From Clostridiales bacterium DTU087 (lineage in GTDB: Bacteria; Bacillota; Limnochordia; DTU087), in NCBI GenBank assembly GCA_001513495.1, contig LFTN01000009.1:1-43235 (forward strand): DNA of 43,235 bases, given 5' to 3'. The notes under the pieces are model-generated. The model was given only the letters and a program-made list of their open reading frames with translations. It had not been told where the DNA came from and made no database searches. Positions within the stretch are counted from its first letter, which is position 1, and the number at the start of each line of letters is the position of its first letter. Below are positions 10,948 through 42,635 of the stretch, one piece after another. The position numbers were made by a program, and so were the translations under genes.

Positions 10948-12123
10948 CTATCCTTGCTCGCCGATAACTCGGCCATAACGCCCGCCGCCGCCCTCACTCA
11001 CAGCCAGCTGTCCATCTCTGGCAGCAGCGATGTTTTGAGCTACCCTTGGGCCAACTACATCTTCCAACTCCTTAAGGGAAGTGTAGTGGAGTATCTGCAT
11101 CTCGGTGCCGAAGGCATCCAGCAGCTTTTCCAAGGTTTTCTTGCCGACACCGGGGATGAACTCCAGGGGAACTTGATGAATGTAAGGGGGACGGTCCCCG
11201 GGATGCACAGCTTCATCCCCATCCGCGATGGCGGTGATGCGGTCCAGTACTCCGACTACGACCCTACTGCTGTCACACCTGCTGCACCGGTAGACCGGCG
11301 GCTCTCCTTCAACTACCGCTTCACAGTTGAGGCAGAAGGTCCTGTGGTACTTGCCCAAACGGGGATCTAAGCCGTAATTTGCCAGAATCAGGTTGTCTGG
11401 GCTGCCTGTCAGTGCCCTGCAAAAATGGGCAAAATCGGGGTTGGTGAGCTGGAGCTTGTTGTATTCCCGGGCGATTTTGGGAAGGGAGTGGGCATCAGAA
11501 TTACTTAAGAACCTCACATTGGATAGTTCAAGGAGCCTGTCGGCCAAGTAGGTATTGGAACTTAACCCCAGCTCTAAGGCGGGAAAACCTACGCCGGTTT
11601 CGGCTAAGCGGGTGACACAGTTGCCGTATATACTCTTGAACGGAGTAAAGGCATGGGCTGGCAGGAAAACGCCTGTCAAATCATTGACTACAAATCCATT
11701 GACTTCCTGAATTCCGAGGCTCGCCCGCTGAGAGCTGAGAGAGATATTGGTGATGGCAGAAGAGAGGAAACGGCTCAATTCCTCCATTGTCTCCAAAGAA
11801 GGGGTGAAGGCCAAGAAATGGGCACTGCCTCCTTGAGGCCCTCCGAGCTCAATTTCTGCACCTAGAAATAGGACAACCTTGTCCCGATAACTCAAGCCTC
11901 CTCCGGGAAGAGGAACTAAATCGCCTCTATCAACCAATGCCCTGAGATCTGCCAGTACAGCTGGAGAGGCGCAGTCGACGATCCCGGCGATGTGGATGCC
12001 TTTACGTTCAGAGCATTCCCGGAGAATTCCCTGTACTGTCAAGGCAGACGACGCAGTTATTTTTACCGGGGTGCCCGACCCAGCCCGCCCAACATGAATG
12101 TGCAGATCAGCGAAATATATCAA
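10948..12123 (-). CDS. PHP-domain nuclease of the endonuclease Q / TIGR00375 family (putative)
   Basis: N-terminal PHP motif YFADLHIHVGRA, an internal Cys4 zinc ribbon CLNCEAVVEGEPPVYRCSRC, and a C-terminal helix-hairpin-helix IPGVGKKTLEKLL. TTG start 7 nt after GGGAGG. The family assignment is from memory of the domain layout. Confidence 0.55.
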   Translation of the reverse strand: MIYFADLHIHVGRAGSGTPVKITASSALTVQGILRECSERKGIHIAGIVDCASPAVLADLRALVDRGDLVPLPGGGLSYRDKVVLFLGAEIELGGPQGGSAHFLAFTPSLETMEELSRFLSSAITNISLSSQRASLGIQEVNGFVVNDLTGVFLPAHAFTPFKSIYGNCVTRLAETGVGFPALELGLSSNTYLADRLLELSNVRFLSNSDAHSLPKIAREYNKLQLTNPDFAHFCRALTGSPDNLILANYGLDPRLGKYHRTFCLNCEAVVEGEPPVYRCSRCDSSRVVVGVLDRITAIADGDEAVHPGDRPPYIHQVPLEFIPGVGKKTLEKLLDAFGTEMQILHYTSLKELEDVVGPRVAQNIAAARDGQLAVSEGGGGRYGRVIGEQG

Positions 12124-12355: not shown

Positions 12356-13468
12356 TTAGAGCCATTGGGCTGCCAGCCACCCTGCTGCGCCGCCGGCCCG
12401 GAAAAAGGCTGGATCATCCGCCGGTGTCCTCCCCATGGAGGTGACCTTTACCCCATAATCCTCCAAGAGCTCTAGGGTTCGGTCCCCATCGACCCAATGG
12501 ATCTGATGGCGGCTCAAGCCCTGCTCCTCGATCTGCTGCCGCAATCGCTTGCCCTCATCCCCGCTCAGTTGAGGGATAGGGAGATGGCAGGCAGTATGGC
12601 ACAGCCGCCCCAGGGCGGTAATGGTGTGATGACTAAGCCCCTGATGGCGCGCCCGCCTGTCGGCAAAACTAATCCGAGGTACGGCTATGGCCCTTCCGCC
12701 CAGGGAGTTGACGGCATCGAGGATGGGGGCTGTTTCCAGAGCCGTTGTGCCAAAGGCTGTACCAGTACCCACTACTCCAGGCCCCATGGCAACTACGCAG
12801 GCATCCGCCCGGGCTGCGTGCTTCGCTGCTAAGAGCCCCGAATAAATGCCAACTGCCTCGAGATCGCCCCCAAAGGCATGTCCAGCTGTAATAGTAGTGG
12901 CGATCAGGCCCTTTTCCTTGAGGGAAGCTGCCAGCTTGCTGAACGCCAGCGGCAAAGCAGCACCATCGGTCATCAGGTATGCCAGGCGGGCTGGTTGAGC
13001 GGCGAAATGGCGAAATGCTACTGCTATTGGTGCAATCAGGCTGTGAAGGCTGGCGACCATGACCGGCATGCCGGCCAGAGAGTCGCTTTCTCCAAGGATG
13101 GAATGATAGGGGCTCCCTTCTTCCTCAACCGACAAGACGGCAAGCTGCAGAGGCGTATAGCGAAGCTTCACAATGTGGCCATGGGGTTTTTGGGGCTCCT
13201 CTGCCATGGCAGGCCCCTTCCTTGCCGCTAGTACTTCGGCCCGATGTTGAGGATAGCAGCCGATGACAAAGTGTATCCCGCCGGTTCCCAGTCCAAGATC
13301 CACCGCAGTGGTGTTGATCTCCACCCAGTCCCCCGGCAAGACATCATCACACAACTGCCGATAGTTGACGGCAGGAGCCAACTGACCCCTAACATCTACT
13401 ACCAGCTCTTGGATATCTGCCGCAACCTTGGTGACCTTATGCACTTTGCCCCACATTCGGTGAAGCAT
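12356..13468 (-). CDS. DUF3866-like protein (uncharacterised)
   Basis: ORF 12356..13474. The ATG at 13468 has 6-nt spacing from GGGGGG. Motif block GDWVEINTTAVDLGLGTGGIHFV and the ~370 aa length fit my recollection of DUF3866. Not verified. Confidence 0.45.
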   Translation of the reverse strand: MLHRMWGKVHKVTKVAADIQELVVDVRGQLAPAVNYRQLCDDVLPGDWVEINTTAVDLGLGTGGIHFVIGCYPQHRAEVLAARKGPAMAEEPQKPHGHIVKLRYTPLQLAVLSVEEEGSPYHSILGESDSLAGMPVMVASLHSLIAPIAVAFRHFAAQPARLAYLMTDGAALPLAFSKLAASLKEKGLIATTITAGHAFGGDLEAVGIYSGLLAAKHAARADACVVAMGPGVVGTGTAFGTTALETAPILDAVNSLGGRAIAVPRISFADRRARHQGLSHHTITALGRLCHTACHLPIPQLSGDEGKRLRQQIEEQGLSRHQIHWVDGDRTLELLEDYGVKVTSMGRTPADDPAFFRAGGAAGWLAAQWL

Positions 13469-13702
13469 GATCATCCCCCCGACATCGCATTCGCAGTGTC
13501 AAGCAGCTAATGTCTAGTTAGGATGACCATGGCTCAGAAGGAAAATGCGCCTGTCACAGTCGCAGCCTCTGGCAGAGTATCTGGCCAAGGCGCTCTTGTT
13601 CAAGGGTCCGAGAAGGCCCTGAAAAATAGAATTCCGCCGGGTGGGGATGCCCCGCGGAACTTGATTAGAAAACCAACCAGCCATTTGCTACTCAATCAGA
13701 CA

Positions 13703-22836: not shown

Positions 22837-24609
22837 TTACTCATCAAACTCCAAACGCAAATCGGCCAAGTCCTTGAGGACTTTCGTGCCTGTGCCCTGC
22901 CGTTTAGTCTCCTTTTCTTCCTCATCTGGGAGCTTAACTTCCTTAAGATCCAAGCGCCCGGCAAGGGTAAAACCGCTCTCATCATCTTCAGGCCCCGCAA
23001 CATATTCGGAAATCTCCTCTTCCTGGAATTGCTGATCCTCGGAAAACAAAGTGGGAAGCGGCTCTTCCTCGATCAGTTCTTCCTCCAGCAGTGATTCTAG
23101 GTCTTGCTTGCGGGCCTTGCGGCTCTTTGGCTTCCCTAAGACAGCGGCAGGCTTGGCGGTCTTTCTGCGCCAAACGCCCTCTTCATCCAGTTCCCCATCA
23201 ACAGCTTCAGACTCTTCATCGAAGGCTTCCACATCTTCATCTAATGCCCCGTGCTCAATGGTATCGGAGTCGTCATCTGCATCACCCGGCAGCTCCTCTT
23301 CGGCATCCGGCTCCAGAGGAAGCTCTTCAAAGTCATCGTCAGGTTCAGCGGCAGACGCCGTATCAACAGCTTCCTCATCCAACTCCCCATCGGTATCAGA
23401 CGCCGTCAGTCCATCGGTTTCAGCTGGGGCTTCTTCATCCTCAAGCACCTCGCCATCAACTGCATCCAGTGCCGCATACTCCAGCTCTTCCGCTGGAACC
23501 TCTTCTTCATCATAGCCTTGGTCTATATCTTCATCCTTTGGCACTGCCCGCTCAAAGGCCTCCCGGGCCAAGAGCTGGGCCATCTGCTCCTGGCTCTTGA
23601 TGTCGATTCTCCACCCAGTCAGCCGGGCTGCTAGGCGCGCATTCTGTCCTTCTTTTCCAATGGCTAAGGACAAGTGATTGTCCGGCACCACGGCTCTGGC
23701 AGTCTTGGTGGCCTCATCCAGGTAGGTTCTGACTACATTGGCCGGGCTTAAGGCATTGGCCACAAACTCCTCTTCGATAGGTGCCCAAGGAATGATGTCA
23801 ATCTTCTCACCTCGGAGTTCCGACACGACAGCCTGGACCCGCATGCCCCTCGGGCCCACACACGCTCCTACCGGGTCGACATTGGGATCCCGGGAGTACA
23901 CTGCCACTTTGGAGCGGGCACCGGCCTCTCTAGCTACTGCCTTGACCTCCACAGTCCCATCGTAGATTTCTGGAACTTCCATCTCAAACAAGCGCAGCAC
24001 CAAACCGGGATGGGTTCTGGAGACCGCTACCTGGGGCCCTTTGCCGGTCTGTCGAACTTCGCTGATGTAGACCTTTAATCTCGTCCCCTGGGTAAGGGAT
24101 TCGCCCGGCATTTGGTCCGATGGGCTTAGGATCGCTTCCACTTTGCCCAGATCGATGATTACATTGCGGTTCTCCCTGCGCTGAACAATGCCGGTGACGA
24201 CATCTCCTTCACGATTCTTAAATTCATCATAGATGAGCGCCCTCTCAGCTTCACGAATCCTTTGAATAACCACCTGTTTGGCGGTTTGGGCAGCGATGCG
24301 GCCGAAATCCTCGGGGGTTACCACTACATCAACGACATCATCCAGCTTGTAGTTTGGGTCTATGGCCTGAGCCTCCACCAGGCTGATCTCTGTGGACTCA
24401 TCCGTGACTTCCTCGACCACAACTTTACGGGCGTAGACATTGATTTCCCCCGTCTTTTCATCAACTTCTACCCTTACATTCTGAGCTGAACCATAGTTGC
24501 GCTTGTAGGCTGTCGTGATGGCAGCCTCTATGGCTTCTAGTATAATATCTTTGGTAATACCCCGCTCTTTTTCCAACTCATTAAGAGCGCTCATCACTTC
24601 GAAGTTCAT
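22837..24609 (-). CDS. nusA: transcription termination/antitermination factor NusA with a long acidic C-terminal extension
   Basis: The N-terminal, S1 and KH1/KH2 core (~355 aa; GACVGPRGMRVQAV, AIGKEGQNARLAARLTGWRIDI) is followed by ~235 D/E-rich residues. Confidence 0.95.
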   Translation of the reverse strand: MNFEVMSALNELEKERGITKDIILEAIEAAITTAYKRNYGSAQNVRVEVDEKTGEINVYARKVVVEEVTDESTEISLVEAQAIDPNYKLDDVVDVVVTPEDFGRIAAQTAKQVVIQRIREAERALIYDEFKNREGDVVTGIVQRRENRNVIIDLGKVEAILSPSDQMPGESLTQGTRLKVYISEVRQTGKGPQVAVSRTHPGLVLRLFEMEVPEIYDGTVEVKAVAREAGARSKVAVYSRDPNVDPVGACVGPRGMRVQAVVSELRGEKIDIIPWAPIEEEFVANALSPANVVRTYLDEATKTARAVVPDNHLSLAIGKEGQNARLAARLTGWRIDIKSQEQMAQLLAREAFERAVPKDEDIDQGYDEEEVPAEELEYAALDAVDGEVLEDEEAPAETDGLTASDTDGELDEEAVDTASAAEPDDDFEELPLEPDAEEELPGDADDDSDTIEHGALDEDVEAFDEESEAVDGELDEEGVWRRKTAKPAAVLGKPKSRKARKQDLESLLEEELIEEEPLPTLFSEDQQFQEEEISEYVAGPEDDESGFTLAGRLDLKEVKLPDEEEKETKRQGTGTKVLKDLADLRLEFDE

Positions 24610-24631: not shown

Positions 24632-25096
24632 CTAGAACTCGACGGCCAGGTTAGCTTTGGCCACCTGGTCACGAGGAATCTTGTTTACTTGGCCCCCGGC
24701 CTCAACAACTACCGCACCGTCTTCTAACCCCAGAAGCTTCCCTTCCCATTCCTTCTTGCCTTGGTAGGGAGCGTAGGTCTTGATATGTACTAACCTGCCC
24801 GCAAATCTGGTGAAGTGTTCATCACGGGTTAGCGGCCTTTCCAGCCCAGGTGAAGACACCTCCAGGGAGTAGCTGCCGGGAATCGGATCCACCTCATCCA
24901 GCCGGGAACTGAGCCGGCGGCTGACCTTTTCACAGTCATCCAAACCCACTCCACCGTCTTTGTCGATAAACACCCTCAGGATCCAGTCAGGGCCTTCCTT
25001 CGTATATTCGACGTCTACCAGCTCCAGCTCTGGGTAGTCGGTCAAGATTTCCTCTGCAAGCTGAGCAGTTATGCGCTCTACATCCTGTTTTGCCAT
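24632..25096 (-). CDS. rimP: ribosome maturation factor RimP
   Basis: 154 aa. Y.LEVSSPGLERPL motif. Immediately upstream of nusA. Confidence 0.9.
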   Translation of the reverse strand: MAKQDVERITAQLAEEILTDYPELELVDVEYTKEGPDWILRVFIDKDGGVGLDDCEKVSRRLSSRLDEVDPIPGSYSLEVSSPGLERPLTRDEHFTRFAGRLVHIKTYAPYQGKKEWEGKLLGLEDGAVVVEAGGQVNKIPRDQVAKANLAVEF

Positions 25097-25334
25097 GCTT
25101 TAGCCTCCATTCTGCTGCTAATAGCCCAATCTATGTAACACCCGCTCATTGTTATTCTAGGCTGAATGACAGGACAGGCCGCCTTGTAAAGCTTGCCGGA
25201 CTGCCCCTTTTACCACGAAAGAGTGGGAATCACCCACTCTTCCAAAGAAGTTCCACCGCTGTGAAAAATGCAGAGCCGCGCTTTGCTCCCCATCTAAACC
25301 ACTGCGAGGATGCTCCGCGGCACACTCCAATGTT

Positions 25335-25363
25335 AGTATATCACTTTCCTGCATCGTTGACAA
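25335..25363 (-). promoter_or_regulatory. sigma-A-type promoter for the rimP-nusA-infB operon
   Basis: The minus strand reads TTGTCA-17 nt-TATACT (rc of 25358-25363 and 25335-25340), giving a ~230-nt leader. Confidence 0.45.
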
Positions 25364-25412
25364 GGCCTTCGATAAAGCCGAATAGCACAAAAAGTCCAAG
25401 AGGTGGTTATGT

Positions 25413-28400
25413 TTAGAAAAGCGATAGCTGGGATGTCTTGGGTAGTCCGGCCAGTGCCCCATGGGCACCGAGGGTTTCGATGACTGTCTTACTCACACCG
25501 CATCTCATCCTGATATCCTCCCATGAGGCAAAGGGCCCTTCTTCTCTTCCCTGAGCCAACATCAGTGCTGCCCCCTCCCCTACTCCCGGTACAATTGCCA
25601 AGGGCGGCCTCAGTCTCTCTTCCTGAATCAAGAAGCGGGTGGGGTGGGATTGGTAAAGGTCAACTGAATGGAATCCAATTCCCCTCAGCATGGCCTCCAT
25701 CACCACTTCTGCCACTGTCAGCAAGCTTTTCTCCTTGGCACTGGCAGCGCTGCCTTTCGCTAAGATGGAATCGATGATCGCCCTTACACCCGGCAGGCCA
25801 TCGCTGATCAGCTGGGCTTCAAAGGTACCAGCCCGGACAGAGAAATAGGCCGCGTAATAGGCTAAGGGATGATGTACTTTAAAGTAAGCTATCCGGAAAG
25901 CCATGGTCACATATGCCACTGCATGGGCCTTGGGGAAAAGATAGCTGATTTTCCTGCAGGAGTCGATGTACCATTGCGGCACCCCGATGGTTTCCATGGC
26001 TTGGACATCCTCGGGCCTTAATCCTCTTCCCTTCCGCACCCGTTCCATAATTGAGAAGGCGGTCTCCGGTTCCATGCCTTCTTGTATGAGATAGTTCATG
26101 ATATCATCCCTGGTGGCAATGGCTTGACTCAAATCAGCAATTCCGTTCTTAATCAGGTCTTGAGCATTGTTGGTCCAGACATTGGTCCCATGGGAGAACC
26201 CGCTGATGCGCACCAGCTCACCGAAGGATGCAGGCCGGGTCTCTTCCAGCATCTGCCGGACGAAGCGGGTGCCAAATTCAGGGACTCCTAACGTGCCGAC
26301 GGTAGTCCCGAGATCATCGGGCTCGATCCCTAAGGCTTTCACACTGGAGAAGATGCTCATGGTATCGGGATCGTCCAAGGGTATATCCAGGACCGGCACT
26401 CCAGTCATATCCTCCAGCATCCGCAGCATGGTCGGATCATCATGGCCGAGAATGTCCAGCTTCACCAGGTTGTCACTAATGGCATTGTAATCAAAATGGG
26501 TTGTTATAGTGCCGCTGCCAGCATCATTGGCCGGATACTGCACCGGGGAGAACTCGTTGATATCCCGACCTTGGGGAACCACAATCATGCCTCCTGGGTG
26601 TTGACCGGTGGTGCGCCGCACCCCTGTGCAGCCTCTCACCAGCCGGTTGATCTCAGCCGTCCGGGCAGTCAGCCCCTTACTCTCTAGGTATTGGCAGACG
26701 AAGCCATAGCTGGTTTTTTCCGCTAGAGTACCGATAGTGCCTGCCCGAAATACGTGCTCTTTGCCGAAGAGTTCTTCTGTATACCGATGCACACAGGCTT
26801 GATACTCCCCTGAGAAGTTCAAATCTATGTCAGGTACTTTTTCTCCATGGAATCCCATGAACACCTCAAAGGGGATGTCAAAACCAAGCTTTTGGTACGG
26901 CATTCCACATTGACAGCGCTTATCTGGCAGATCAACACCGGCCTGCACCGAGCCGTCGGTGATAAACTCCACTTGGCGGCATTGGGGACAAACATAATGG
27001 GGTGGCAGCGGATTGACCTCTGTCACTCCACAGAGGGTAGCCACCAGTGATGAACCCACAGAGCCCCGGGAACCGACTAGATAGCCATCGCTGAGGGACT
27101 TCTTCACCAGCTTGTGGGCAATTAGGTACAGCACAGCGAATCCGTTGCCCACGATGGCATTCAGTTCCTTCTCCACCCGCTCCTTGATCAGCGGGGGCAG
27201 CGGATCACCGTAGAGCTCGCGGGCATTGGCATAGGTCATCTCTATGATCTGCTCTTCGGCCCCCTCGATGGTGGGAGCATGGAGGCCGCTGGGCACCGGC
27301 CGCAAGTCTTCCACCATTTCCGCGATCCGATTAGGCCCATGGATGACTGCTTCTTCAGCAGCCTCTTGGCCAAGATAGGCGAACTCAGCCAGCATCTCTT
27401 CTGTAGTCCTGAAAAACAGAGGCGCCTGCCTTTCTGCATCTTCATAGCCTTGACCGGCCATGAGTATGCGGCGGTAGACCTCATCCCACGGGTGCAGGTA
27501 GTGGACATCACAGGTGGCTGCTACCGGTTTGCCCAGCCGCTTTCCCAGCGCGACAATCTCTCGGTTGATCCTTTCCAGATCTGCCTGGGATTGGACCCTG
27601 TCGCCTACTAAGAAGGCGTTATTGCCCAGCGGCTGGATTTCCAGGTAGTCATAGAAACCGGCTATTTCCGCCAGCCGTTCTCTATCCGCACCCTGCAAGA
27701 ATGCTTGATACAACTCTCCTGCTTCACATGCCGAACCGATGATCAGGCCCTCCCGATACTCCTCAATTAACCGTCGGGGGAGGCGGGGCCGGCGATAGAA
27801 GAACTCCAAATGGGATAGGGAAACCAGCTTATACAGGTTGCAGAGGCCCTGCTGGTTCTTGGCCAAAAGCACCACATGATAGGAGGGCCCTTTGGGATCA
27901 TCTCCATCGACTAGGTACCCCTCCATACCGTACAGTATTTTGATGCCAGCCTGCTTGCCTGCGTAGTAGGCTTCGGGAAAAGCCTGTACGACACCGTGGT
28001 CGGTAATAGCGATGGCTTTGTGACCCCAGTCTGCGGCGAGCTGGATGACATCTCTGACTTCTACAGTCCCGTCCATGGCAGACATTTTGGTGTGCAGGTG
28101 AAGTTCAACCCGCTTCTTGGGAGCCTCATCCCGCCGAACAAGTTCTGCCGGCGGCTCCTCTCTCTGCAGGTCATTGGGCAGCATAGTCAACTCCTGGGTG
28201 TAGCGATCCCACTGGATGGGGCCTCGGGCCCGCAGCCACATGCCTCGGCTTAGCTCCGGCGCCAGCCGGACTGCATCTTCATCCTCAAACAGTTTGAGGG
28301 TGATGGAATCACGGTAGTCGGTGAGCTCAATGATCAGCAAGCGCCGCCCGCTCCGCAGCTCCCTTTCTTCCAAGTTGATGATCTCACCGGCAATGACAAA

Positions 28401-28901
28401 GGAACGCTCTTCATCGGTAATCTCGGCTATGGACCGCGGCTGCTCCCGAATCCTGCGTCCCTTCAATACGCCTGTGGCACCGCTATTGGCTGCTGATACT
28501 GGGGCTTTTGCCTCCGGTGCTTCCAGCACTTCACGACTGGCCCGCTCCATTACATAAGACATATAAGCAGCCTCATCGGCCATGAGCAGATCATTAATGG
28601 GCATCGCTGGGGACAGGCCTTCCTCGCCTTCAGCGATGTCGAAGGAAATCGACCGCAGCTCCGGCAGGAGCTCCACCAGGGTTTGACCTAGAGTCTCCAG
28701 TTCCCTGCGGCACACCTCTTCTCTGGCTGCCAGGCATATTTTCCATTCCCGGCGTTTACAATCGACCAGGACTCTCTCTACAACAGCTCGGGCGGCTGTA
28801 CCTTCACAGGTTACTGGAAGTTGAGCCGCCCGCAAGAAATCGGACAGGGATTGTCCCCTCGTTCGGGGAGTTACCACATATACAGTTGCATTACCAGCCA
28901 C
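25413..28901 (-). CDS. polC: DNA polymerase III PolC-type alpha subunit lacking the 3'-5' exonuclease insertion
   Basis: 1162 aa. GTG start after GGAGAGGA. PolC-specific blocks are present throughout: OB fold, VELHLHTKMSAMDG, ITDHGVVQAFPEA, PPHYVCPQCRQ zinc module, VPDIDLNFSGEYQ, GQHPGGMIVVP, LDILGHDDPT, C-terminal QLSLF. Canonical proS-polC-rimP position. No DEDD exonuclease motifs (see findings). Confidence 0.9.
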   Translation of the reverse strand: MAGNATVYVVTPRTRGQSLSDFLRAAQLPVTCEGTAARAVVERVLVDCKRREWKICLAAREEVCRRELETLGQTLVELLPELRSISFDIAEGEEGLSPAMPINDLLMADEAAYMSYVMERASREVLEAPEAKAPVSAANSGATGVLKGRRIREQPRSIAEITDEERSFVIAGEIINLEERELRSGRRLLIIELTDYRDSITLKLFEDEDAVRLAPELSRGMWLRARGPIQWDRYTQELTMLPNDLQREEPPAELVRRDEAPKKRVELHLHTKMSAMDGTVEVRDVIQLAADWGHKAIAITDHGVVQAFPEAYYAGKQAGIKILYGMEGYLVDGDDPKGPSYHVVLLAKNQQGLCNLYKLVSLSHLEFFYRRPRLPRRLIEEYREGLIIGSACEAGELYQAFLQGADRERLAEIAGFYDYLEIQPLGNNAFLVGDRVQSQADLERINREIVALGKRLGKPVAATCDVHYLHPWDEVYRRILMAGQGYEDAERQAPLFFRTTEEMLAEFAYLGQEAAEEAVIHGPNRIAEMVEDLRPVPSGLHAPTIEGAEEQIIEMTYANARELYGDPLPPLIKERVEKELNAIVGNGFAVLYLIAHKLVKKSLSDGYLVGSRGSVGSSLVATLCGVTEVNPLPPHYVCPQCRQVEFITDGSVQAGVDLPDKRCQCGMPYQKLGFDIPFEVFMGFHGEKVPDIDLNFSGEYQACVHRYTEELFGKEHVFRAGTIGTLAEKTSYGFVCQYLESKGLTARTAEINRLVRGCTGVRRTTGQHPGGMIVVPQGRDINEFSPVQYPANDAGSGTITTHFDYNAISDNLVKLDILGHDDPTMLRMLEDMTGVPVLDIPLDDPDTMSIFSSVKALGIEPDDLGTTVGTLGVPEFGTRFVRQMLEETRPASFGELVRISGFSHGTNVWTNNAQDLIKNGIADLSQAIATRDDIMNYLIQEGMEPETAFSIMERVRKGRGLRPEDVQAMETIGVPQWYIDSCRKISYLFPKAHAVAYVTMAFRIAYFKVHHPLAYYAAYFSVRAGTFEAQLISDGLPGVRAIIDSILAKGSAASAKEKSLLTVAEVVMEAMLRGIGFHSVDLYQSHPTRFLIQEERLRPPLAIVPGVGEGAALMLAQGREEGPFASWEDIRMRCGVSKTVIETLGAHGALAGLPKTSQLSLF

Positions 28902-28935: not shown

Positions 28936-29646
28936 TTATCTAGGCCCTAAAACCTTGAGTATCTCCCAGTACATCTTGAGACGGTTCCGTGCTCCTGGAA
29001 GCAGCCCCTGCTTTTCTTCCTTCATGACGTGGGACACATCCTTGAGCAGCACCTTTTCTACCCGTATGCCGTTGGCGGCTACGTACTTAGAGATCGCTAC
29101 TTCAACCCCGTACCGGCTGTCTTCCAACTGAGGAATCTCCTCCAGGATCTTCCTGCGGATTGCCCTCTGGCCCGAAAGAAACGGCGTGATTTTCTGGGCA
29201 ATGGTAGTTGTTGCCCTTCCCCCGGCAAACACTCCGACGGTCATATCTGTCCTGCCGGAAATAACCGGCTCCAGCAGATCATGACAGTGAGTTTCAGACA
29301 ATCCAACCAGGTCTGCGTCCACAAACAGCAGGATATCTGCTGTGGTTGCCTTGGCACCGGCCTTCATCGCGCCGCCCTTGCCCCTATTGGGATAGAGGCT
29401 GATTACCCTAGCCCCGAGATCAGCAGCCACTTGAGCAGTGTGATCCGATGATCCGTCATTGACTACAATGACTTCATCAATAGCGCTAGAGCTAAGCAGA
29501 ACCTGCAGTATACCGCCGATTGTATCCTCCTCGTTGTAAGCGGGGACTACAGCAGCGACCCGATGTCTAATCTGTGCAGGATCTCCCTTATCCTCTGCTA
29601 GTAGACTTGGAATCCGCGATGGCTCTTGTGATTCGGTCTTGAACAT
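28936..29646 (-). CDS. family 2 glycosyltransferase (small, soluble type)
   Basis: VVPAYNEEDTIG..VIVVNDGSSDHT..NRGKGGA..FVDADL (DxD). 236 aa. The only ATG start (29646) overlaps the proS 3' end by 59 nt. Confidence 0.75.
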   Translation of the reverse strand: MFKTESQEPSRIPSLLAEDKGDPAQIRHRVAAVVPAYNEEDTIGGILQVLLSSSAIDEVIVVNDGSSDHTAQVAADLGARVISLYPNRGKGGAMKAGAKATTADILLFVDADLVGLSETHCHDLLEPVISGRTDMTVGVFAGGRATTTIAQKITPFLSGQRAIRRKILEEIPQLEDSRYGVEVAISKYVAANGIRVEKVLLKDVSHVMKEEKQGLLPGARNRLKMYWEILKVLGPR

Positions 29647-31318
29647 GACTCACCACTTCACTCAATGAGATTAAATGCTCTTCGCCCGTGGCTCGCCAAC
29701 GAACCTCAACCTGTCCATCAGCCAGGGCCCGGGGCCCAATGGTGATCCTGATGGGAAATCCGATTAAATCAGCATCCTTAAACTTCACACCCGGCCGCTC
29801 ATTTCTATCATCAATAATTGTCTCTACTCCAGCTTCGGTGAGGTCCTGGTAGATTCTCTCCGCTGCCTCTCTCTGCTGTTCATCTCGATAATTAACGGGA
29901 ACAACATCAACATGGAAGGGGGCAACACTGACGGGCCAGCAGATGCCGTCGACATCATGGCACTGTTCGATGATCGCTGCCATCGTCCGGCTGACTCCTA
30001 TGCCGTAGCAGCCCATGATCAGAGGCCGCTCTTCTCCATCTTCATCGGTAAACAAAGCACCCAGTGGTACACTGTACTTGGTTCCCAGTTTGAAAACCTG
30101 ACCGACTTCTATGCCCCTAGCCCCCTGGAGAACACCTTCTCCGCAATGACATGGGTCACCGGGCTGAGCCTTGCGGATATCTACTACTGCATCTGGAGTA
30201 AAATCCCGTCCCGGCTTAACACCCTGCAGGTGAACATCAACTGCGTTGCCGCCGGCAATGCCGCTTTCTATGGCCATGACCGCCGGATCGGCGATGATCT
30301 TGCAGCCTTTCAGGCCGATAGGGCCGGCAAATCCCAAGGGAGCCCCGGTTACCTCTTCGATGGTCCGTTCATCGGCCAGCTCAACTTCCAGGCAGCCTAT
30401 GGCCCTGGCAAGCTTGATTTCATTTACGGCGTGATCTCCCCGCAGTACTGCAGCTGCTACTTGGTCGCCGCCCCGGTAGATCAGAGTCTTGATCATCTCA
30501 CTGGCGGGGCGGTTAAAGAACTTCTCCAAATCTTCAATGGTCCTCATCCCCGGCGTAGCAACTTCAACCACCGGATCCTCCCGGCCAACGGGGTCGGTTG
30601 GCGGCGTGAAGCACTCAGCCTTCTCCACATTGGCTGCATAGTCGCAGCTTGAGCAGTAGACGATCTCGGCTTCGCCGGCATCGGCAATGGCCATGAACTC
30701 ATGGGTCTGATTGCCGCCAATAGCTCCCGGATCAGCCTCCACCGGCCTGGTCTTGAGGCCGCACCGGTCAAAGATCCGCTGATAGGCGTGGAACATTGTC
30801 CAATAGCTCTCATCTAGCCCCTGTTCATCACGGTCAAAGGAGTAGAGGTCCTTCATAATGAACTCTCTTCCCCGCATGACTCCAAATCGGGGGCGGATTT
30901 CGTCTCGGTATTTGTTCTGGATCTGATATAAGAGTAGAGGCAGCTGCCTATAGGAGCGCACCTCATTCCTGACTAAAGCAGTTGTGATTTCTTCATGGGT
31001 AGGCCCTAAGCAAAACAGTCGCTGGTGGCGATCGGACAGCTTAAACATCTCCTCGCCGTAATCATCCCAACGGCCTGTCTCATGCCACAACTCTGCCGGC
31101 TGGACGATGGGCAAGAGCACCTCCTGGCCTCCTGCAGCATCCATCTCCTCCCTGACGATCCGCATGATCTTCTGCAGCACCCGGTACCCCAGGGGCAGAT
31201 AGGAATATATCCCAGCTGCGACTTTTCGCATCATCGCAGCCCGCAGCATCAGTTGGTGGCTTGCGATCTCAGCTTCTGCAGGAACTTCCCGTAGAGTCGG
31301 CATCAAGAGCTTCGACAT
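29588..31318 (-). CDS. proS: proline--tRNA ligase (bacterial type with INS editing domain)
   Basis: Homologue-like start MSKLLMPTLREVPAEAE at 31318 (the ORF track begins at 31366). Class II motifs. ~576 aa. Confidence 0.95.
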   Translation of the reverse strand: MSKLLMPTLREVPAEAEIASHQLMLRAAMMRKVAAGIYSYLPLGYRVLQKIMRIVREEMDAAGGQEVLLPIVQPAELWHETGRWDDYGEEMFKLSDRHQRLFCLGPTHEEITTALVRNEVRSYRQLPLLLYQIQNKYRDEIRPRFGVMRGREFIMKDLYSFDRDEQGLDESYWTMFHAYQRIFDRCGLKTRPVEADPGAIGGNQTHEFMAIADAGEAEIVYCSSCDYAANVEKAECFTPPTDPVGREDPVVEVATPGMRTIEDLEKFFNRPASEMIKTLIYRGGDQVAAAVLRGDHAVNEIKLARAIGCLEVELADERTIEEVTGAPLGFAGPIGLKGCKIIADPAVMAIESGIAGGNAVDVHLQGVKPGRDFTPDAVVDIRKAQPGDPCHCGEGVLQGARGIEVGQVFKLGTKYSVPLGALFTDEDGEERPLIMGCYGIGVSRTMAAIIEQCHDVDGICWPVSVAPFHVDVVPVNYRDEQQREAAERIYQDLTEAGVETIIDDRNERPGVKFKDADLIGFPIRITIGPRALADGQVEVRWRATGEEHLISLSEVVSHVQDRITRAIADSKSTSRG

Positions 31319-31398
31319 TCTCAATTTCAACACCCCCGAAATCAAAACAATTGTAACAGACTGCAAGAATCCCTGTCAATATTGGGGAAAGGGCCCAA

Positions 31399-41058: not shown

Positions 41059-41496
41059 TTATTGCCTAAACCGTTCCAAATCTAAGATAAGCCGCACTTC
41101 TCCCTTGGGAAGCTCTACGTCCCTCGCGATTTCTTCTACAGTGTATCCTCGCTCAGCCAAACCTATAACTGCAGCCCGCTTCTCCTCCAGGCTGCTCTGG
41201 GAAGCAGTCTGTTCCACGTCTTGACCACCCGCCGCTGCCTCCTGGCTTAGGCTAGTGCTACTGCCATCCTGGGCCTGGCCCAAGCGGCTGTCAAGCTCCT
41301 GCAAGAGGGCCTGGCCCGCTTCGTCCAGCTCACTCATCAGCTCCTGCAGAGCAGCCTCTGTCTCTACCATGGCCGCCCGGAGGCCGTAGAGCCTTCCCCA
41401 CCGCTGCTTGAGCCCGGCAATTTCCCAACCCAGCCATATGCAGGCTCCCAATGCTGCTATCGATATAATGAGTGCCATTGCAGCCATCATCGCCAC
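41059..41496 (-). CDS. membrane-anchored coiled-coil protein with C-terminal helix-turn-helix (uncharacterised; swrB position)
   Basis: N-terminal [23 protein letters not shown], a helical Q/E/L-rich middle region, and a C-terminal HTH-like [35 protein letters not shown]. The start (41487-41496) abuts the stop of the preceding ORF. Confidence 0.5.
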
Positions 41497-41498
41497 CT

Positions 41499-41822
41499 CT
41501 AGATTCGAATATCGATTTTTCGCCCCAGGCCCTCTCGGGCGGTGAGCTTGCCTTCGTTCCCGTCCTTCTTCTCCTGTTCAGTCTGACTCTGATGCTGTTG
41601 GGGCGGTCTACGGCGGCCCCCGCTATCCCTTTGATCAATCCGAGCATGCTGTTTTTGCTCAGTGCCGGCAACTTGGCTGCGGCGGGCAGCCAGCTCTGCC
41701 CCGGCCTGGGAGCCCAATTGGGCCTGGACGGCCTCAGGGTGCTTCTGGCCAGCTTGCTCCAGGCGGGAGCCGTCGTGGGACCGAGGGAACAACACTTGCA
41801 GATCTGGAAATTTGATGGACAA
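41499..41822 (-). CDS. hypothetical hydrophilic Q/R/E-rich protein
   Basis: 107 codons. TTG start 5 nt after GGGTGAG, 27 nt after the fliA stop. The stop lies 2 nt before the next gene. Competing overlapping ORFs exist in other frames, so its coding status is uncertain. Confidence 0.35.
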   Translation of the reverse strand: MSIKFPDLQVLFPRSHDGSRLEQAGQKHPEAVQAQLGSQAGAELAARRSQVAGTEQKQHARIDQRDSGGRRRPPQQHQSQTEQEKKDGNEGKLTAREGLGRKIDIRI

Positions 41823-41849
41823 GTCTGCTCACCCTTCCTCGGGAGCCAC

Positions 41850-42635
41850 TTACCCAACCATACCAACATCAGAGCGGGATAGCTTTCCCCGCAGCCGGCT
41901 GAGGGCCTTGGTGTGCAGCTGGGAGACCCGGGACTCAGAGACATCCATCACTTTGCCGATCTCCTTCAAGGTGAGTTCTTCATAGTAATACAAACTGATC
42001 ACCAGGCGTTCTCTTTCCGGCAAAGCCTCGATAGCCTCCGCCAGCACCTCCAGCAGGGCATCCATGGTTACAAGTACAGCTGGATCCTCATGGCTGGTGT
42101 CTGCTACCATATCAGTGAGCCGCAGCTTCTCACCATCTTGTCCGCCCTCTGACCAAGGTTCATCCAAAGATAGCAGGGTCGTTGCTGCGACCTCCTGCAA
42201 CAGCTTAGAATAATCGGCAGCAGTGATCCCCATGGCTTTCTGCAGCTCCGCATCGGTGGGCGGCCTGCCCAGCTTCTCTTCTAGTTGAGCCATACTCTGT
42301 GCCAACTGCCGAGCCTTAAGCCGCACCGAACGGGGAACCCAATCAGCTGCCCGCAGCCCGTCGAGAATTGCTCCTCTGATTCTGGTGGCTGCGTATGACT
42401 CAAACTTGACGCCCCGGGACGGATCGTATTTCTCCACCGCATCCAACAAACCGAATATCCCATAGCTGACCAGATCATCATACTCAACTGTATTAGGAAG
42501 ACCGACAGCCATCCGTCCGGCTACATACTTAACCAGATGCAGATATGCTGTAACCAAGGATTCCCGGACCTTGGGATCTCCAGTCTTCTTTAACTGGCTC
42601 CACCATATGTCCAGCTGCCTTTCCTCCACTGACAC
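41850..42635 (-). CDS. fliA: flagellar RNA polymerase sigma factor (sigma-28, FliA/SigD)
   Basis: Region 2 LVTAYLHLVKYVAGRM..YDDLVSYGIFGLLDAVEKYDPSRGVKFESYAATRIRGAILD. Region 4 LTLKEIGKVMDVSESRVSQLHTKAL. Follows flhG. Confidence 0.9.
   Translation of the reverse strand: MSVEERQLDIWWSQLKKTGDPKVRESLVTAYLHLVKYVAGRMAVGLPNTVEYDDLVSYGIFGLLDAVEKYDPSRGVKFESYAATRIRGAILDGLRAADWVPRSVRLKARQLAQSMAQLEEKLGRPPTDAELQKAMGITAADYSKLLQEVAATTLLSLDEPWSEGGQDGEKLRLTDMVADTSHEDPAVLVTMDALLEVLAEAIEALPERERLVISLYYYEELTLKEIGKVMDVSESRVSQLHTKALSRLRGKLSRSDVGMVG

Follow-up and report, generated by a model that had tools for sequence, protein, structure and literature searches.

The open reading frame at positions 25413-28901, on the minus strand of the 43,235-nucleotide stretch of DNA analysed here (the window), encodes a real, intact and selected PolC replicase that has no built-in exonuclease. 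Our preferred reading, to which we assign a probability of about 60%, is of a genuine and functional polC on the chromosome whose product lost its exonuclease (Exo) domain secondarily and probably proofreads with its PHP domain.

The assignment as polC, the gene for the PolC-type DNA polymerase III alpha subunit, draws on NCBIfam, Pfam, AF2 and Foldseek. The 1162-residue frame starts with GTG, has zero internal stops, and scores 1487.4 bits against NF001688 of NCBIfam (cut-off 873) and 1374 bits against TIGR01405 (cut-off 1043). Its AF2 model (mean pLDDT 88.2) has 3f2b as the top Foldseek match, at a TM score of 0.95 and an rmsd of 2.7 A. The Pfam set at E<=1 comprises OB, PHP, DNA_pol3_alpha, finger and HHH_6. 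The domains stand in PolC order, with the OB fold (residues ~165-248, 28158..28409, this and all following features on the minus strand; PF01336 at 169-245, E 4.5e-9) ahead of an uninterrupted PHP domain (residues ~264-470, matched at 266-416, 27492..28112; PF02811, E 8.5e-37), whereas DnaE has its OB fold C-terminally. The Pol3 palm/thumb core (residues 551-819, 26445..27251; PF07733, E 4.7e-57) contains the catalytic residues D691 and D693, both in PDIDLNF, and D816, and is followed by the fingers domain (residues 822-959, 26025..26438; PF17657, E 2.2e-23) and a tandem helix-hairpin-helix (residues 1074-1154, 25440..25682; PF14579, E 1.5e-9). D691, D693, N695 and D816 are each invariant in 120/120 homologs, and the Asn of PDIDLNF marks PolC where DnaE has Asp (PMC3919608). 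A four-Cys zinc finger (C638, C641, C663, C665; 26907..26990) has CxC rather than CxxC as its second pair, a form confined to the 12-member clade of the window PolC; the other 108 homologs have CxxC. The protein ends in ...TSQLSLF, and its beta-clamp binding motif QLSLF (25416..25430) fits the PolC C-terminal consensus QL[S/D]LF (PMC3919608). Because the catalytic Asp triad, the zinc finger and QLSLF are all intact, the enzyme should polymerise and bind the clamp like any other PolC. An earlier note on this DNA had described the frame as continuous, not a frameshift pseudogene, and as colinear with canonical PolC up to QLSLF; the lack of internal stops and the NCBIfam, Pfam and PDB searches bear out both statements.

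The exonuclease is missing from the very place where canonical PolC carries its ~200-aa DEDDh Exo. Here the PHP domain has a 14-residue loop, GYLVDGDDPKGPSY (residues 328-341, 27879..27920), which runs between metal ligands 5 and 6 and is modelled by AF2 at pLDDT 88-97 throughout. The spacing of these ligands (E327 to H342) is 15 residues, as against 215 in G. kaustophilus PolC, exactly 200 residues fewer. Likewise, the alignment to the NCBIfam PolC model breaks into two stretches, of which the second pairs residues 339-1162 with model positions 613-1444 and ~190 model positions are skipped. The junction reads GIKILYGMEGYLVDG-DDPKGPS-YHVVLLAK; the earlier note had the DDPKGPS residues right, and their nucleotide span should be 27882-27902 instead of 27882-27911. 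The short loop closes off the PHP barrel, in a way similar to the engineered deltaExo constructs, considered below, that have served PolC crystallography and kinetics.

Searches for the domain elsewhere were equally negative. RNase_T (PF00929) has no Pfam match in the polC ORF at E<=1, and neither it nor motifs Exo I-III were found in the window PolC, which thus lacks the DEDDh-in-PHP hallmark of 86% of PolCs. We also trained a custom Exo HMM on 19 Exo domains taken from the nearest PolCs that have one. Run without any filters over the six reading frames of the 43-kb window, it gave no match (best E 0.62), and the 6 kb on either side of polC in 12 related loci were likewise blank; as positive controls, 19/19 Exo domains were matched at 1e-91 to 1e-105. 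These results uphold the earlier claims that the Exo is missing from its canonical insertion site, the loop closing between ligands 5 and 6, and that the ORF holds no exonuclease motif. Some homologs have longer loops at the Exo site (84 aa in P0056, 32 in P0110 and P0116, 30 in P0019 and P0038); we considered these as Exo remnants and rejected them, as they are low-complexity and without Exo similarity.

The N-terminal region is also reduced. Subdomain N-I is kept (residues ~6-89, 28635..28886), as indicated by alignment with the N-I of canonical PolC and by an AF2 fold of beta-alpha-alpha-beta-beta-alpha-beta at pLDDT 80-90; PF14480 has no Pfam match in the ORF at E<=1. The place of subdomain N-II is taken by a linker that is predicted to be disordered (residues 92-142, 28476..28628; AF2 pLDDT below 50). 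Alignment with N-II-containing PolCs leaves a ~75-aa gap, so that N-II is absent, and 164 residues precede the OB fold, compared with at least 217 in 19/19 exo-containing homologs. The length deficit was thus correctly attributed in the earlier note to the Exo together with a ~75-aa shorter N-terminus.

A gap this clean could in principle come from an assembly deletion or mark a decaying paralogue, and the window comes from an unbinned, strongly fragmented metagenome assembly. We give this explanation next to no credence. Eleven MAG relatives at 67-86% identity, each assembled independently, have the identical junction in frame, which excludes the assembly deletion that the earlier note had raised, and the junction recurs in more than 100 protein clusters that include complete genomes. 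The AF2 model is confident through the junction. Decay has a point in its favour in one relative, L002, which carries an in-frame stop at codon 1123. Against it, every catalytic and metal-binding residue of the window PolC is intact, and dN/dS of polC is 0.07-0.08, which excludes a decaying copy. Its rate of evolution is as low as that of proS and of rimP.

The gene order ispG-proS-GT2-polC-rimP-nusA is common to the window and its 11 relatives. Upstream lie a family-2 glycosyltransferase gene (28936-29646, minus strand) and proS (29588-31366, minus strand), both recognised by Pfam and in the same order in all clade loci; downstream, Pfam and synteny identify rimP (24632-25096, minus strand) and nusA (22837-24609, minus strand). 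This confirms the canonical proS-polC-rimP-nusA slot described earlier, with one GT2 gene between proS and polC. The window also contains spoIIM. No dnaE was found in the window contig, and Rfam returned nothing in the whole window at the gathering score or in the polC-rimP spacer at E<=1.

The novelty implied in the earlier note did not hold: a catalogue of exo-less PolCs had already come from Timinskas et al. (NAR 2014), who found 6% of PolCs without Exo, all from Clostridia or Negativicutes and all alongside DnaE1 (PMC3919608). The window PolC is a fresh example of a variant known since 2013/14 and frequent among uncultured Firmicutes. Among the 120 nearest protein clusters at 90% identity, 101 are exo-less, with Thermosinus, Thermanaeromonas, Heliorestis and Limnochorda among their cultured carriers. 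The nearest relatives are MAGs labelled Bacillota bacterium, and more distant exo-less matches come from Limnochordia, Syntrophothermus, Thermosinus and Heliorestis. In a broad sample, exo-containing PolCs are the majority (108/131 representatives).

To follow the history of the domain we used a neighbour-joining tree of 179 PolC sequences without an outgroup root, counting changes with soft polytomies. Exo presence or absence changed at least 5 times when splits with at least 95% bootstrap are considered, and up to at least 10 times with splits of at least 50%. Exo-less PolCs nest beside exo-containing sisters at 96-100% bootstrap. These repeated changes and nested positions indicate that Exo loss is easy and frequent, and we favour secondary loss because one domain is hardly likely to have been inserted again and again at a single site. 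It is possible, although we think it quite unlikely, that neither the window clade nor the Limnochordia-like lineages grouped with it ever had Exo or N-II, and that they preserve an ancestral, DnaE-like form of PolC that proofreads by PHP. The clade sits in a large part of the tree that is all exo-less and mostly N-II-less, its deep attachment has support of only 8-67%, and in DnaE, the outgroup, the loop at the Exo site is short. The number of changes, the well-supported exo-containing sisters and the exo-containing majority speak against primary absence, in a tree without an outgroup root. Secondary loss therefore remains our inference, although the weakly supported deep placement of the window clade makes it probable, not proven, for this lineage.

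The PHP domain is the most likely source of 3'-5' proofreading in cis, a prediction made from the protein sequence. All nine PHP metal ligands are present in the window PolC, a point the earlier note had left to be checked: H268, H270, D277, H302, E327, H342, C392, D465 and H467 (HHDHEHCDH). Mapped against Table 1 of Barros 2013, the G. kaustophilus counterparts are H346, H348, D355, H380, E405, H620, C670, N743 and H745, with the same spacing except from E to H. The set fits the nine-ligand motif HHDHEH[C/H]DH of active PHP domains (PMC3666897, PMC12926913), and the ligands are invariant in a 60-sequence alignment (A1). In M. tuberculosis, D226N abolishes PHP exonuclease activity, and the Asn at ligand 8 of G. 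kaustophilus PolC (N743) goes with inactivity (PMC5636811), although that PHP domain binds three metals (PMC3666897); the window PolC, by contrast, has Asp (D465). The earlier note had cautiously offered PHP in cis, a DnaQ-like subunit in trans and fidelity organised differently as options. Of these, PHP proofreading in cis gains from the intact nine-ligand site, and it is because all nine ligands are present, including the ligand-8 Asp, that we consider it the most likely mechanism. With its full trinuclear set, the PHP domain would carry out 3'-5' proofreading in the manner of the active PHP exonucleases in DnaE1 of Thermus and Mycobacterium.

The intact motif is present in 101/101 exo-less 90% clusters, and among 50%-cluster representatives in 22/23 exo-less compared with 66/108 exo-containing sequences (Fisher p = 0.001, uncorrected for phylogeny), so that ~39% of the latter have lost at least one ligand. 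It also occurs in 19/19 exo-containing clostridial PolCs, and its retention may reflect lineage or a structural role and not compensation for a lost Exo. The one PolC PHP domain that has been assayed, that of G. kaustophilus, was inactive, and we found no report in the literature of a measured exonuclease activity for an exo-less PolC.

A doubtful but serious alternative is that PolC does not proofread at all: PHP would be structural only, and a co-resident DnaE1 with an active PHP would act as the principal or correcting polymerase, leaving PolC a narrower role. The confinement of the catalogued exo-less PolCs to PolC+DnaE1 genomes fits this, as does the observation of Timinskas et al. that the DnaE1 of Clostridia possesses all the features of a replicase acting alone; they raised the same possibility (PMC3919608). 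Moreover, the G. kaustophilus PHP shows that metal binding may persist without activity. A reduced role is harder to reconcile with a window PolC that keeps the consensus clamp motif, is encoded in a core housekeeping operon region and evolves at the slow rate of its neighbours, and an idle PHP domain is harder to reconcile with ligands kept in nearly all exo-less representatives and often lost from exo-containing ones.

Alternatively, a separate DnaQ-like DEDDh exonuclease may dock on PolC and proofread in trans, as epsilon does on E. coli DnaE. A 2026 survey (PMC12926913) gives precedent, with stand-alone DnaQ homologs averaging more than 3 per bacterial proteome and trans proofreading established for proteobacterial DnaE1 and, via PolC, for B. 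subtilis DnaE3. We nevertheless judge it unlikely for the window PolC. The Exo HMM is blank in the window and around polC in the 12 related loci, and with its PHP site intact the protein would seem to need no replacement. In the consulted part of the survey, the proofreaders given for Clostridia are PHP (of PolC and DnaE1) and the DnaQ domain of PolC, with stand-alone DnaQ going unmentioned.

In the textbook view, PolC is a replicase that carries its own DnaQ proofreader. That the domain can be done without is shown by the exo-less PolCs found in nature. Our analysis indicates that it came or went at least 5 times, for which repeated loss is the simplest account, and that PolCs without it have nearly always kept an intact PHP metal site. 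Should PHP be the proofreader, exo-less PolCs would be replicases that work like mycobacterial DnaE1, which would bear on fidelity in Clostridia-like bacteria with the still uncharacterised PolC+DnaE1 replication system, and also on PolC-targeted antibiotics and engineered mutator strains. If instead the domain was never acquired, the exo-less group would reveal in what sequence the domains of PolC were added. This significance is general to the exo-less class and not specific to the window, which confirms the class, extends it to a new uncultured clade and offers a clean candidate for biochemical work.

Comparison with known systems places the window PolC closest to the exo-less PolCs of Timinskas et al., which come from Clostridia-like Firmicutes and share its OB, PHP, Pol3 and HhH domains, its PHP without DEDDh, its PHP metal site and its clamp motif. 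It differs from that set in coming from an uncultured anaerobic-digester clade of Bacillota, unsampled by complete-genome surveys, and additionally in lacking N-II and in the CxC pair of its zinc finger. Canonical PolC (B. subtilis; E. faecium, 9QPC) is orthologous, with 41-54% identity over shared domains and the same gene neighbourhood and clamp motif, but carries a DnaQ-like Exo of ~200-211 aa that separates PHP strands 3 and 4, and an NTD of two subdomains, whereas the window PolC has no Exo and keeps N-I alone. DnaE1 of Thermus and M. tuberculosis (2HPI, 5LEW) resembles the window PolC in its complete nine-ligand trinuclear site, in the short loop that joins ligands 5 and 6 and in having no DEDDh domain fused to it; it belongs to the other C-family branch, however, with a C-terminal OB fold, a tau-binding CTD and ~21% identity, and PHP exonuclease activity is demonstrated there while for the window PolC it is predicted. 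The nearest structural counterparts are laboratory deletions of Bacilli PolCs, the engineered PolC-deltaN-deltaExo of G. kaustophilus (3F2B/3F2C/3F2D) and that of S. aureus (PMC12592400, PMC3666897, PMC3656037), which have the same domain content as the window PolC, align with it in one unbroken stretch and match its predicted structure at the TM score and rmsd given above. Both engineered forms are active as polymerases, and the S. aureus construct polymerises at 330 per second (PMC3656037), which speaks for the viability of the architecture. Unlike these constructs, the window PolC is natural and keeps N-I.

The open reading frame at 25413-28901 (minus strand) runs from a GTG start through 1162 residues with zero internal stops and is, with a probability of about 0.95, a genuine, functional PolC of the known class that lacks the DEDDh exonuclease domain (Exo). 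Pfam places on it an OB fold (residues 169-245), a PHP domain (266-416), the Pol III alpha core (551-819), fingers (822-959) and a tandem HhH region (1074-1154), all on the minus strand, and finds no RNase_T/DEDDh match at E<=1. Scores against the curated NCBIfam PolC equivalogs are 1487 bits (cut-off 873) and 1374 bits (cut-off 1043). The NCBIfam alignment falls into two pieces, the second placing query residue 339 on model position 613, and about 190 model positions are therefore skipped. The protein has the Asp triad of the polymerase, all four zinc-finger cysteines, the Asn in PDIDLNF that is specific to PolC and, at its C-terminus, the clamp motif QLSLF. The second cysteine pair of the zinc finger (26907-26990, minus strand; residues 638-665) is CxC (C663-Q-C665) across the 12-member clade that includes the window PolC, unlike the CxxC of the remaining 108 homologs.

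The earlier note was right in what it observed and in its structural reading, and it came through the tests that it had set against itself. It had claimed that Exo is cleanly missing at its canonical site in the PHP domain, and the metal ligands bear this out. All nine are found in the window PolC (H268 H270 D277 H302 E327 H342 C392 D465 H467), and their intervals equal those of G. kaustophilus PolC (H346 H348 D355 H380 E405 H620 C670 N743 H745; Barros et al. 2013, Table 1; PMC3666897) save for the E-to-H step between ligands 5 and 6, which is 15 versus 215 residues. Precisely 200 residues, the Exo insertion, are thus missing, leaving a 14-residue loop. Banos-Mateos et al. 2017 (PMC5636811) place the DEDD exonuclease of PolC at this same loop, and give the equivalent loop in DnaE enzymes as 9-29 residues. 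The junction reads GIKILYGMEGYLVDG-DDPKGPS-YHVVLLAK, with DDPKGPS encoded by nucleotides 27882-27902. An HMM from the 19 closest exo-containing PolCs, built on their Exo domains, gave zero matches to the whole window in six frames with all filters off, and recovered 19/19 positive controls at 1e-91 or better. The loop between ligands 5 and 6 is also an insertion hot spot: five homologous PolCs (P0056, P0110, P0116, P0019 and P0038) carry low-complexity inserts of 30-84 residues there, none similar to Exo.

An assembly deletion and pseudogene decay are both ruled out for practical purposes. A public record from metagenome assembly GCA_001577815.1 (LSQX01389273.1) differs from window positions 15413-38901 at 5 of 23,489 bases, including one that replaces K661 of the window PolC by R in the record. 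Our scan of species-representative genomes recovered 12 related loci at 59-86% identity, in anaerobic-digester 'Bacillota bacterium' MAGs. The junction is covered in 11 of these and is in frame in every one, as YGMEGYL[IV]xxxxxxxxS[YF]H, and the order ispG-proS-GT2-polC-rimP-nusA is common to all complete loci. Against the four closest orthologues, polC shows a dN/dS of 0.07-0.08 (Nei-Gojobori), and PolC diverges at about the rate of proS and rimP. The closest solved structure is 3f2b, a crystallisation construct of G. kaustophilus PolC from which the experimenters deleted the exonuclease domain (PMC12592400), and the alignment to it is single and unbroken. The AlphaFold2 model of the window PolC (mean pLDDT 88.2; 88-97 at the junction) superposes on 3f2b with a TM-score of 0.95 and an rmsd of 2.7 A. 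It is the in-frame junction in relatives, synteny, dN/dS, intact catalytic and clamp motifs and this confident model together that exclude deletion and decay. In one relative at 83% identity (JAAZHE010000178.1), the otherwise intact polC has an in-frame stop at codon 1123, explained by an error in sequencing or assembly, or else by recent inactivation. Two distinct exo-less polC loci, 74% and 70% identical to the window and flanked by the same genes, occur in the single MAG CTOTU40582, which suggests a mixed bin more than a duplication.

The surroundings of polC show features of their own. The 316-nt polC-rimP spacer (25097-25412, minus strand) is conserved over 9 orthologous loci and contains, in order, a promoter-like TTGTCAA-N17-(TG)TATACT (25363..25335, minus strand), an attenuator-like GCCGCG...CGCGGC hairpin followed by a T-run, and an invariant 10-bp hairpin, AAGAGTGGG....CCCACTCTT. 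Four of the 9 loci carry a GC/AU swap at one pair of the attenuator-like hairpin, and the spacer has no Rfam match at E<=1. Its probable role is that of a leader or attenuator for the rimP-nusA-infB operon. Between proS and polC lies a family-2 glycosyltransferase gene (28936-29646, minus strand) that overlaps the proS 3' end by about 59 nt, an arrangement kept in all related loci. The nusA gene (22837-24609, minus strand) encodes a 590-residue NusA with an extremely Asp/Glu-rich C-terminal tail of about 230 residues. Farther away, minus-strand ORFs at 10948-12123 (391 aa) and 41330-41944 (204 aa) have no Pfam match at E<=1e-5; adjoining the former, the ORF at 12356-13474 encodes a DUF3866 protein.

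The N-terminus, earlier described as about 75 residues short, owes this to one subdomain: by alignment to canonical PolCs, the window PolC retains N-I and lacks the ~75-residue N-II. In the AlphaFold2 model N-I is folded (pLDDT 80-90) and is followed by disordered residues 92-142. At least 217 residues precede the OB fold in 19/19 exo-containing homologs, and fewer do so in about 70 of 101 exo-less ones; N-II loss is therefore confined to exo-less lineages within this sample.

Absence of Exo is widespread among the relatives of this protein. Of the best-scoring 120 clusters at 90% identity, 101 lack Exo, with ligands 5 and 6 separated by 12-32 residues (by 84 in one cluster), and 19 have it (212-214 residues). 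Exo-less members include Thermosinus carboxydivorans, Thermanaeromonas toyohensis, Heliorestis and Limnochorda pilosa, as well as Limnochordia and Syntrophothermus MAGs. When 1.84 billion 50%-identity representatives were searched exhaustively, the top 150 included 131 full-length PolCs, with Exo present in 108 and absent in 23. Simple neighbour-joining trees of the shared domains (Kimura-type correction) require at least two Exo changes in 200/200 bootstraps of the near set, and a broad 179-sequence tree at least five, counting splits with >=95% support, or at least ten with splits of >=50%. Several exo-less PolCs are sisters to exo-containing ones with 96-100% support. Because it is implausible that one domain was inserted anew at an identical site, recurrent loss across PolC diversity is the sensible reading of these simple trees. 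The window clade itself may, with lower probability, reflect a primary absence, since the trees give it no firm deep position. One representative from the 50% search, P0218 (1178 aa), is the sole exo-less one with degenerate PHP ligands (HRSLENSDQ) and would therefore lack any recognisable proofreader; it belongs to a cluster of 9, located on contigs up to 134 kb, and may be a second copy, akin to the Thermotogae case of Timinskas et al.

Polymerisation and clamp binding by the window PolC should be ordinary; an engineered S. aureus deltaN-deltaExo PolC is a fast polymerase, with a kpol of 330 per second (PMC3656037). For 3'-5' proofreading the best-supported candidate would be the PHP domain, a role to which we give even odds from its ligand residues, a trans-acting DnaQ or a DnaE1 partner being less likely alternatives. 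The nine ligands are complete in the window PolC, in 101/101 exo-less near homologs and in 22/23 exo-less representatives, whereas at least one is lost in 42/108 exo-containing representatives (Fisher p = 0.001, uncorrected for phylogeny). Serious caveats apply. Exo-containing clostridial PolCs carry the same intact motif, so ligand retention may be lineage-wide or structural, and to our knowledge exonuclease activity has never been demonstrated for any PolC PHP. At ligand position 8 the window PolC has Asp, like the active enzymes of Thermus and M. tuberculosis, and replacing that Asp with Asn (D226N) inactivates the latter (PMC5636811). The inactive PHP of G. kaustophilus PolC has Asn here (PMC3666897; PMC5636811).

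Timinskas et al. (PMC3919608) found that 6% of PolCs lack Exo, all of them from Clostridia and Negativicutes apart from a single additional copy in Thermotogae. Every one came from a genome pairing PolC with DnaE1, amounting to 16% of such systems; the authors noted that no PolC+DnaE1 system had been characterised, and put DnaE1 forward as the possible main replicase in these genomes. A 2026 survey by the same group (PMC12926913) classes proofreaders by the HHDHEH[C/H]DH motif, and counts usually three candidate proofreaders in Clostridia. We found no biochemical characterisation of an exo-less PolC in the literature. The window PolC is not a discovery by itself, but would lend itself well to the biochemistry still missing in the field. 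Its architecture has been on record for over ten years, and it adds one more example from an uncultured digester clade, with N-II loss and the CxC zinc-finger variant as minor extra features.
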